From an uncultured Thermoplasmata archaeon (lineage in GTDB: Archaea > Thermoplasmatota > Thermoplasmata > Lutacidiplasmatales > UBA184): DNA of 64,000 nucleotides. Position numbers and translations under genes: made by a program. The stretch spans positions 95,166-159,165 of the forward strand of contig CAVQKI010000005.1 in the NCBI GenBank assembly GCA_963713145.1. The letters are read 5' to 3'. How positions within the stretch are numbered: position 1 is the first letter of the stretch; every line of letters starts with the position of its first letter. Of the stretch, positions 26,880 to 28,252 are shown piece by piece. The notes beneath the pieces are model-generated. The model ran no database searches. It was not told where the DNA came from and saw nothing but the letters and a program-made list of their open reading frames with translations.

Positions 26880-28252
26880 CTAGCATGCCGGGCAGCGGCA
26901 GAAGCGCTCGTAATCGTAGCGCGCGTCCTCGTGGGTGCGACCGGCGCTCCAGCAGAGCGCGCAGCGCGCTCCGCTCGCGATACAATCGTGCCAACGAATG
27001 CCGTGCTCGTTGAGCAGGCGCCGGCGCAGCCGCAGGAATTCCTCGGCCGACCTCTGGGCGATTGCCCCGAGCACGAAGTAGACCCCGCAAAGAAGCCCGA
27101 TCCAGGCCGCGAGGGCCGTGGTGACGTGCACGAGGCCACCGGGCACGCCGGGCGAAAGATAGGCGAGCTGCCACATCCCCCACCAAAAGGCGGCGCTCGC
27201 GCCGAAGAGTCCCGCCGACCGGTAGCCGTCGTAGGTCGGGATGTCGAGAAGCGTGAGCACCGGTACGGCCGCCGTGGGGTCGGAACCGTTCCCCCCCTCC
27301 GCGGCCCTCGAGGTCGGGGGGACGACTCCCGTCGTCGCTATCGCCAGGAAATAGTCCAGCGCCGCATCGCTGCCGATCGACCGGATGACGCCGGACATGT
27401 CGAGGAGACCTCGGCCCGTCAGCTCGACGACCGCCTTCGTGCTCCCGATCGCCCGGAAATACGCCCGGGCGGGGCCTTTACCGATCGATTCGGCGAACAG
27501 GAGGACGTTGTCGCCCGTGAGCTGCGCGACCGACTTCGTCTCCCGGATCGCCCGGAAATACTCCAGCGCGAGCCGGGTACCTTGGGCCCTGGCGAAGGCG
27601 AGAACCTTCTCCCCGGTCAGCTCGGTCGCCGCCATGGTCTCCCGGATCGCCCGGAAGTACTCCCGGGAAGCGTCGCCGCCGATCGACCGGGCGTACGTCA
27701 GGATCCGCTCGTCGGTGAGCTGGGCGACCGCTTTCGTTTCCCAGCATGCTCCGAAGAACTCCACAGCGGCGTCGCTTCCGATCGAACGAGCGAAGGCGAG
27801 GACCCGTTCGCCCGTCAGTTCCGCCGCCGCCCGGGTCTCGCGGATCGCCAAGAAGTACTCCACGGTGGCGGGGCTGTCGATGGACCGGAAGAAATCGACC
27901 GCGCGGAGTACCCGCTCGTCCGTTAGCTCCCGGACGGCTTTCGTTCCCCAGATTGCCCAGAAGTACCACTCGGCCGTATGGCGGTCGATCGACCGGGCGA
28001 AAGCAAGGACCCGTCCGTCGGTGAGCTCGGCGACCGCCCTAGTTTCTTCGATCGCGCGGAAGTAATCGTGGGCCGCAGGACGGCCGATCGAGGTGGCAAA
28101 CTCCGCGGTCTCGAACAGCTTGCCCGCCCGTTCGTCCCCGGTTGAGCCGTTCTTGCCGACGTGGGAGATTAGGAGGTGAAGTGCGACCTGGCCGCAGCCG
28201 GCCTTCAGGAGCGCCCGGACCGCCTTCTCCTCGGAAAGGCGTGGGTGCCTCA
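26880..28252 (-). CDS. Tandem-repeat membrane protein. It has about eight 33-aa alpha-helical repeats, then two TM helices and a Cys-rich zinc-ribbon-like tail. Start assigned to the GTG/TTG at MRHPRLSEEK.
   Basis: Repeat consensus ELTdERVLAFARSIGsdAAvEYFRAIRETKAVA x8. TM helices GLFGASAAFWWGMWQLAYL and LVHVTTALAAWIGLLCGVYFVLGAIA. C-terminus WHDCIASGARCALCWS...YDYERFCRCPAC. The first approximately 95 codons of ORF 26880..28538 are R/P-rich junk. Confidence 0.5.
27380..28100. repeat. Intragenic tandem repeat of about 99 nt (about eight copies) that encodes the 33-aa protein repeats.
   Basis: Recurring ...atcgcccggaa(a/g)tactcc...ccgatcga(c/a)cgg...gagctg/cgcgaccg... blocks at 99-nt period. 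Confidence 0.6.

Follow-up and report, generated by a model that had tools for sequence, protein, structure and literature searches.

Analysis of a 64,000-nucleotide stretch from an uncultured Thermoplasmata archaeon (GenBank assembly GCA_963713145.1, contig CAVQKI010000005.1, positions 95,166 to 159,165; here called the window) revealed a gene encoding a membrane-anchored protein with eight tandem repeats of about 33 residues, a predicted two-helix membrane hairpin, and a Cys/His-rich tail. This gene is positioned upstream of a gene for an orphan protein of 200 amino acids and of two ammonium transporter (Amt) genes, an arrangement that recurs in related genomes. [quoted passage not shown] We tentatively propose that the protein is a membrane-tethered adaptor or regulator that acts, together with the orphan zinc-ribbon/coiled-coil protein, at the Amt channels, and we assign this reading a probability of about 0.4. 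An earlier annotation of the same DNA, made by a model from the sequence without database searches (the original prediction), had described an uncharacterized membrane-anchored repeat protein, and this description was borne out.

Eight tandem repeats form an old and conserved array

The array consists of eight tandem units of 31 to 36 residues each, located at positions 27318 to 28118 of the window (Table 1), with an insertion of 3 residues in two of the units. The mean identity between units was 0.474, compared to 0.138 ± 0.011 in 300 shuffles (z = 31), which confirmed the eight repeats of about 33 residues that had been claimed. The accompanying claim of high identity at the protein and DNA levels was wrong: pairwise identity between units is 37 to 64% for protein and 56 to 70% for DNA (approximately 61% overall). 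Tandem Repeats Finder recovered just 2.5 copies, at 75%.

The structure of the protein was modeled with AlphaFold2 (mean pLDDT of 83; repeats above 90), and the layout of the units was determined by DSSP on this model. Each unit comprises a 9-residue helix a (positions 4 to 12), an Ile-Gly turn (positions 13 and 14), a 14-residue helix b (positions 15 to 28), and a short helix of about 4 residues (approximately positions 31 to 33) leading over to the next unit. With a mean net charge of -5.7 and an isoelectric point (pI) of 5.4, the repeat domain is acidic.

Searching 5.8 billion proteins for homologs revealed 65 homolog clusters at 49 to 69% identity and one 99%-identical fragment (P0063) from another assembly. 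Most homologs measure about 440 to 470 amino acids; a few have a longer call at the N terminus, and some are fragments. None of the 65 clusters has a Pfam domain, and no name among them is informative. When 37 homologs were aligned, each repeat was individually recognizable, and the conservation of each repeat between orthologs (50 to 82%) exceeds its likeness to the neighboring units. Repeat copy number, which the original prediction had proposed to compare across relatives, is near-constant: a single natural variant, P0060 (412 amino acids), is short by exactly one 33-residue unit (alignment A1, columns 281 to 313), which shows that the number of copies can change in nature. The recent expansion of the array that had been suggested is unsupported, given the near-constant length of the homologs and the closer match of each repeat to its orthologous counterpart than to its neighbors. 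The concern that the array might be an assembly expansion can be excluded because dozens of independent assemblies share it and its units are only about 61% identical in DNA.

All nine loci obtained from species-representative genomes belong to metagenome-assembled genomes (MAGs) of uncultured Thermoplasmata (soil catalogs, UBA61, UBA184, and Microflora Danica). Within uncultured Thermoplasmata archaea from soil, the repeat-protein gene is genuine, old, and well conserved.

The repeat gene is linked to an orphan gene and ammonium transporter genes

Comparison of the nine genome loci showed that a gene for a protein of about 200 amino acids lies directly downstream of the repeat gene in seven of them, and that an Amt gene followed by a second, convergent Amt gene is present in all nine. 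None of the loci has a counterpart of the genes upstream of the repeat gene, and other flanking genes have switched sides. The same order was found in three of the most divergent members (52 to 56% identity; L011 to L013). The repeat protein is followed by the protein of about 200 amino acids in all three; the next gene matches the Pfam family Ammonium_transp in L011 and L013; in L012, it is truncated at the end of the contig and has no annotation. The second convergent gene encodes Amt in L011; in L013, it likewise runs off the contig and lacks annotation. The upstream genes differ again in these members.

The orphan protein of 200 amino acids had been noted as an uncharacterized CxxC protein, in agreement with the present analysis: it has no Pfam match, and its 100 homologs are confined to the Thermoplasmata. 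Its structural model (pLDDT of 86) shows a long helical hairpin and a beta-hairpin and has no structural relative in the Protein Data Bank (PDB). The cysteines of its two CxxC pairs (C5, C8, C190, and C193) are invariant, and the N- and C-terminal pairs would form one zinc site. The other neighbor named in the original prediction, a membrane "glycoprotein" (28848 to 30173, plus strand), is rich in Ser, Thr, and Asn and has neither a Pfam or NCBIfam match nor a counterpart in the nine loci. The description of the neighbors as uncharacterized was borne out for the CxxC protein. The "glycoprotein" is located outside the conserved cluster, and the Amt genes had been overlooked.

Signatures of the PII/GlnK T-loop and C terminus are absent in all reading frames of the window and of loci L001 to L009. 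The positions adjacent to amt are held by the orphan gene and the repeat-protein gene, not by glnK. Compared with intact orthologs (92% identity over the first 231 amino acids), the Amt gene next to the orphan gene carries two frameshifts in the window, near 25220 and 24768, and is either a pseudogene or affected by assembly indel errors.

A spacer of 110 nucleotides (nt) precedes the orphan gene and contains a TATA-like TTAAA box approximately 40 nt upstream of the ATG; the situation in front of amt is similar. Boxes of the form (C/G)TTAAA(G/C) were found at 26807 to 26811, 25966 to 25970 (minus), and 28816 to 28820, approximately 30 to 50 nt before three start codons, those of the orphan gene, of amt, and of the gene at 28848 on the plus strand, respectively. 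These boxes probably serve as TATA elements in this organism. Upstream of the repeat gene, no convincing TATA-like box was found near its start.

The array is anchored by a predicted membrane hairpin with a Cys/His tail

In the AlphaFold2 model, the array is followed by two long helices (residues 342 to 366 and 373 to 416). Kyte-Doolittle analysis gave a value of 2.2 for the second predicted transmembrane helix (TM2) and 0.87 for the first (TM1), compared to 1.0 to 1.6 for TM1 in the orthologs. The two transmembrane helices of the original prediction correspond to two long helices in the model, of which TM2 is clear and TM1 is weak here and stronger in the orthologs. The motif Y.RYR precedes TM1, a short neutral loop connects the helices, and RRRR follows TM2. 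Because Arg/Lys residues flank both helices on the same side (positive-inside rule), the array and the Cys/His tail are both predicted to be cytoplasmic, with the helices forming an in-in hairpin. The suggestion that the protein might be a receptor is unsupported, since it has no signal peptide and these charges would place both the array and the tail in the cytoplasm.

The tail is basic (pI 8.5) and follows the pattern HxC-x6-CxxC-x6-H-x10-CxCxxC, with eight invariant or near-invariant Cys/His ligands; positions H, C, and W are invariant among the orthologs. It had been described as Cys-rich with three CxxC motifs. A Cys/His-rich tail with invariant positions was found, but its motifs are those of the pattern given here. 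The spacing of the ligands fits no known zinc ribbon or RING-type family, and searches for relatives of the tail revealed no Pfam family and no PDB match better than an E value of 1.2 (profile search; noise only). The conserved ligands suggest that the tail probably binds two zinc ions.

Proposed function at the ammonium channels

The cap and the eight helix-loop-helix(-short helix) repeats would form an acidic alpha-solenoid in the cytoplasm, which the flexible linker, the juxtamembrane motif, and the two-helix hairpin would tether to the membrane, while the basic helix and the Cys/His, probably zinc-binding, tail would lead back into the cytoplasm. Helix b has an exposed face (positions 16, 19, 20, 23, 26, and 27) that varies among the repeats of the protein and is fixed among orthologs; this face is therefore expected to provide one long, specific surface for a constant partner. 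The repeat protein and the orphan protein would act at or on the Amt channels and would recruit or sequester a partner at the membrane. A role as an adaptor or regulator is proposed because the orphan and Amt genes follow the repeat gene and no GlnK/PII gene is located nearby.

In other organisms, AmtB and GlnK (PII) form a complex that sequesters regulators at the membrane. The present system resembles GlnK-AmtB, by analogy only, in its tight linkage to amt and its predicted location at the cytoplasmic face of the membrane, with no glnK at this amt locus. It differs in that the fold of the repeat protein is unrelated.

Several observations weigh against a function at the Amt channels. Two of the nine loci (L005 and L006) lack the orphan gene. 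The TATA-like box in front of this gene suggests that it has its own promoter; therefore, co-transcription with the repeat gene is not assured. The Amt copy next to the orphan gene is doubly frameshifted in the window, and adjacency to amt is missing at the loci of the homologs from DPANN archaea, where nothing else is informative. Gene order within one archaeal class can persist without functional coupling, and contact of the repeat protein with Amt or with the orphan protein is something that we infer. With respect to the membrane-bound part of the protein, the hydrophobicity of TM1 is weak in this genome, and the model has low confidence in the tail.

The protein could instead be a scaffold for a specific partner unrelated to ammonium transport, which would anchor another cytoplasmic protein or complex, the gene order being historical. 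The structural evidence fits such a scaffold equally well, and the apparent promoter of the neighbor, the two loci without the orphan gene, and the use of the repeat module by DPANN archaea in quite different architectures and contexts all favor it. However, the cluster has outlived rearrangements that replaced everything upstream and is kept in members down to 52% identity, and we consider this explanation rather unlikely.

DPANN archaea share the cap and repeat module

An exhaustive profile search yielded 112 proteins at an E value of ≤1e-3. Many of the matches are soluble proteins of 700 to 1500 amino acids whose N termini contain the same cap and repeats of 33/36 residues. The DPANN-type members include P0066, P0067, P0068, P0070 (Mia14_0486), P0071, P0075, P0078, and P0080, with loci L010 and L014. 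P0071 (Micrarchaeales) and the window protein share 51% identity over 289 collinear residues (E value of 6e-75), and hhalign gave a probability of 100% for P0066. All relatives with a taxon name are assigned to DPANN archaea, i.e., "Candidatus Mancarchaeum acidiphilum" (Mia14_0486), a Micrarchaeales MAG, a "DPANN group archaeon," and "Candidatus Parvarchaeota."

These proteins, annotated as hypothetical, are true homologs of the cap and repeat module. Unlike the Thermoplasmata protein, they are soluble, have no membrane hairpin or Cys/His tail, and show variable repeat numbers and hypervariable surface positions. Two kinds of large C-terminal domain were found, characterized by the motifs GGRYSGDCTAPPN or GVGFPSCLDI. 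Searches with the C-terminal domains revealed nothing in the PDB (two homologs) and only sub-threshold noise in Pfam (eight homologs). Repeats of this type also occur in P0134/P0313 (1374 amino acids), a few of them together with a stretch named "methylmalonyl-CoA mutase C-terminal domain" (cobalamin-binding type) by one source; this protein represents another architecture for the repeat module.

Comparison of the units within the DPANN arrays revealed that they are near-identical and vary only on one face of helix b, at positions 16, 19, 20, 23, and 27. The repeats of the Thermoplasmata protein differ from one another at these positions, each of which is fixed among orthologs. Because the hypervariable positions of the DPANN arrays are confined to it, the helix b face is the likely ligand surface of the module. 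A ligand-binding stripe that has diversified in the DPANN paralogs and is frozen in the Thermoplasmata is predicted from this pattern. PUF and PPR repeats offer an analogy only: the DPANN repeats are near-identical except for positions spaced i, i+3/4, and i+7 on one helix face, as would be expected for modular recognition, whereas there is no sequence or profile relationship and the corresponding positions of the Thermoplasmata protein are often acidic.

Another possibility is a module common to Thermoplasmata and their DPANN episymbionts, with the Thermoplasmata protein on the host side, a scenario that is compatible with the other readings. The long proteins of Micrarchaeota/Parvarchaeota would engage the same target through the same N-terminal array and could be mimics or effectors with large C-terminal domains; alternatively, they could bind the Thermoplasmata protein itself. 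In addition to the collinear identity, the hhalign match, the taxon names, and the few hypervariable surface positions described above, the biology of Mancarchaeum argues in this direction. Mancarchaeum is an ectosymbiont of the Thermoplasmata archaeon Cuniculiplasma, and gene transfer between them has been documented; Mia14_0486 is not discussed in that study (PMC5498576). However, the presence of DPANN cells on these soil Thermoplasmata is an assumption, taxon names are available for few of the relatives, no secretion signal or known effector domain was recognized in the DPANN proteins, and the distribution is accounted for just as well by plain horizontal transfer of a useful module. We regard the host-side scenario as improbable.

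More speculative still is a combination in which the module is an undescribed archaeal recognition array, with its specificity determined by a few residues of one helix b face (positions 16, 19, 20, 23, and 27), and may be an ancient relative of TAL effectors. The DPANN arrays would then deliver their C-terminal domains to host targets, and the Thermoplasmata version would be an endogenous counterpart at the ammonium channel.

Relationship of the repeat to TALE and HEAT-like repeats

The original prediction had not recognized the repeat as TPR, Sel1, HEAT, or PBS-lyase, and Pfam supported this. A Pfam scan of the window protein revealed no family at an E value of ≤1, including HEAT, HEAT_PBS, HEAT_2, TPR, Sel1, ankyrin, PPR, PUF, and TAL_effector. 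Searches with the repeat protein, its neighbor, and the DPANN homologs against Pfam, NCBIfam, PADLOC, and PHROGs yielded nothing above threshold except a weak match to the NCBIfam AvrBs3 model. This model matched the window protein (E value of 1.5e-4) and P0002 (2e-6), i.e., only the two closest sequences, and missed the divergent orthologs and every DPANN homolog tested. Profile searches assign the repeat to no well-characterized family, and the resemblance to TAL effectors is weak and inconsistent.

This resemblance was analyzed further. Among PDB sequences, the family profile matched TAL effectors only, the top match being AvrBs3 (2ypf) with an E value of 3.9e-18 and 3.7e-4 for the best single stretch. 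The value of 3.9e-18 was rejected as strong proof of homology to TALEs since it sums overlapping matches to near-identical target repeats. In the profile register, LTdERVLaFArSIGsdAavE stands opposite LTPEQVVAIASNIGGKQALE, with LTxExVxAxA..xG..A in common. A true Xanthomonas TALE was recovered at an E value of 3e-11 among 1.84 billion representatives. When the columns of the TALE repeats were permuted identically in every unit, 1 of 5,500 permuted arrays scored as high as the real array. The identical profile search also matched a HEAT-PBS-like array (E value of 7e-9) and obviously spurious eukaryotic low-complexity repeats (9e-10). In hhalign comparisons of four-repeat blocks, TALE reached 86%, compared to 92% for the HEAT-PBS-like P0140 and 94% for another unrelated 33-residue array. 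Foldseek searches with the full model placed dHax3 and BurrH as the top two PDB matches, although neither is significant (E values of 0.14 to 0.24; TM-score of 0.18), and revealed nothing in BFVD.

TALE-like repeats have been defined by the motif X6-V-X6-G-X14-L and by Val7, Gly14, Leu29, a polymorphic residue 13, and Gln17 (de Lange et al. 2015, PMC4787788). In the window protein, each of the eight repeats has Leu at position 7, with Val/Ile at position 6. Six repeats have Gly at position 14, the exceptions being repeats 2 and 3 with Asp, and the orthologs conserve this. At position 29, Lys, Arg, or Gly is found both in the HMM alignment register and in the tabulated repeats. Position 13 is not polymorphic, being Ile/Val/Leu in seven of the eight repeats and throughout the family and near-constant in the DPANN homologs as well. 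At positions 16/17, mostly Asp/Ala is found in place of Lys16/Gln17, and there is no electropositive stripe. The arrangement of two helices with a loop at positions 12 to 14 agrees with that of TALE repeats (DSSP on the AlphaFold2 model; units of 33 to 36 amino acids).

With respect to the described TALE-like proteins (Xanthomonas TALEs, RipTALs, Burkholderia Bat/BurrH, and MOrTL1/2), the present repeats are alike in the period of 33 to 36 residues, the short helix a, the loop at 12 to 14, and the longer helix b, and they share L1, T2, E4, V6, A8, A10, G14, A18, and E20 with the Xanthomonas consensus. They differ in the absence of base-specifying polymorphism, of Lys16/Gln17, and of Leu29, in their acidic surface, and in consisting of eight individually conserved repeats in a membrane-anchored archaeal protein without secretion or nuclear localization features. 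A TALE-like nucleic acid-binding array at the membrane, reading one base per repeat and serving as a sequestered regulator or DNA tether, would be consistent with the profile and structure matches to TALEs, the permutation result, the helix/loop boundaries, and the basic tail. In view of the residues at the defining positions 7, 13, 16/17, and 29, the acidic array of only eight repeats, the insignificant Foldseek values, the better hhalign scores of unrelated arrays, the obviously spurious repeats matched at E values of about 1e-9, the failure of the AvrBs3 model on divergent members, and the blank result for Pfam TAL_effector, it is very improbable.

HEAT-like repeats (HEAT_PBS of the PBS-lyase type and HEAT_2) are short alpha-hairpin solenoids with a two-helix hairpin of about 31 to 33 residues and a hydrophobic-Gly (I/L-G) turn, as in the present units. 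In contrast to them, the repeat described here lacks the signature D..VR..A, contains an extra short third helix, and has no Pfam match at an E value of ≤1. HEAT-like and other short alpha-hairpin solenoid repeats are generally protein-binding platforms.

Three further proteins with similar repeats were observed. P0147 (955 amino acids; ENA metagenome, unannotated) contains 35-residue repeats LTKDDIVKIASHDGAKPALEAVVANWGKLTGEPMK with polymorphic residues HD, NI, NT, NN, YV, HG, and NA at positions 12/13. From its repeats, it looks like a genuine and possibly undescribed TALE-like protein; its C-terminal domain has no assignment. P0162 (1070 amino acids), a STAND/NACHT-type ATPase, contains 33-amino-acid repeats of the form HLTDENLL.EALEVARGIGSEY.RA.AL..LAP, and P0139 (676 amino acids) contains 33-amino-acid repeats LTDPAFMEAFRALLSDLGKDAFVTVMCDGVAAR. 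Both matched the repeat family in hhalign (66 to 94%). These sequences may point to a broader "LTDE" class of solenoid repeats, 33 residues long and so far undescribed.

As to the origin of the array itself, recent expansion, misassembly, or a spurious open reading frame (ORF) in GC-rich DNA, for which the 99-nt period and the frequency of long ORFs at 67% G+C might speak, can be dismissed in view of the DNA identity of merely 56 to 70% between units, the identical order of the eight units across dozens of independent assemblies at 50 to 70% protein identity, the fragment P0063 from another assembly, and the confident AlphaFold2 model.

Gene boundaries and features of the locus

The mechanical ORF extends from 26880 to 28538 on the minus strand, and its first ATG occurs only from residue 226 on. 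Candidate start codons are TTG 28538, GTG 28283, TTG 28271, and GTG 28253. The public database entry P0001 is the identical protein started at GTG 28253 (457 amino acids). Judged from the alignment, TTG 28271 is the more likely start: 26880 to 28271 was taken as the gene because orthologs with the modal length of 463 amino acids have the N termini LASG/MAGG, which align at TTG 28271, and a run of GGTGGGTGG lies immediately upstream of this codon. The G+C content is 64 to 73% over most of the window and 59% in its last 2 kb. Rfam and tRNA scans revealed a single RNA gene in the window, a tRNA-Glu (CTC) at 3287 to 3359 (minus strand), distant from the repeat gene.

Table 1 Features of the repeat-protein gene and its conserved neighbors (positions in the window; residues numbered as in P0001 where indicated)
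Feature	Positions	Strand	Remarks
Repeat-protein gene	26880..28271	-	TTG 28271 start; 463 aa plus stop; based on modal ortholog length
N-terminal helical cap	28119..28271	-	Contains ..EEKAVRALLKAGCG..; conserved; common to DPANN proteins
Repeat 1	28026..28118	-	31 aa; P0001 aa 46-76; degenerate
Repeat 2	27927..28025	-	33 aa; P0001 aa 77-109; invariant block HTAEWYFWAIWGT; best-conserved unit, 82% between orthologs
Repeat 3	27819..27926	-	36 aa; P0001 aa 110-145; helix a with 3-residue insertion
Repeat 4	27720..27818	-	33 aa; P0001 aa 146-178; G23/W26 invariant
Repeat 5	27621..27719	-	33 aa; P0001 aa 179-211
Repeat 6	27522..27620	-	33 aa; P0001 aa 212-244; lowest conservation, 50%
Repeat 7	27423..27521	-	33 aa; P0001 aa 245-277
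Repeat 8	27318..27422	-	35 aa; P0001 aa 278-312; insertion in helix a; C-terminal array cap
Linker, then juxtamembrane motif	27231..27317	-	Motif VPVLTLLDIPxY, conserved; pLDDT <50 at residues 315-337
Predicted TM1	27156..27230	-	Helix 342-366; Trp-rich; weakly hydrophobic in this genome
Predicted TM2	27054..27137	-	Helix; strongly hydrophobic
Basic helix and Cys/His tail	26883..27053	-	Basic helix RRRLLNEHGIRWHDC; most conserved stretch of the protein
Gene for 200-aa orphan protein	26167..26769	-	Downstream; conserved neighbor
Amt gene	24648..25918	-	Conserved neighbor; two frameshifts here; PF00909 on orthologous genes
Second Amt gene	23276..24583	+	Convergent; intact; 435 aa; conserved neighbor

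Implications

A literature search on the repeat, the tail, the neighbor, and the DPANN C-terminal domains revealed nothing relevant. Alpha-solenoid repeat proteins are known; the novelty lies in this family of repeats, in their fusion to a membrane hairpin plus Cys/His tail, and in the linkage to amt. Should none of the functional readings be true, the protein would be one more lineage-specific alpha-solenoid membrane protein.

The compact, confidently modeled 33-residue unit, which is absent from Pfam, is a candidate for a new modular binding scaffold because the variation in DPANN archaea is confined to few surface positions. The identity of 51% between proteins of Thermoplasmata and Micrarchaeota/Parvarchaeota provides a concrete handle on molecular mimicry or the exchange of genes between symbionts and hosts. 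Should the connection with Amt hold, the repeat protein would be a partner of a new type for the ammonium channels of archaea without glnK at the amt locus.

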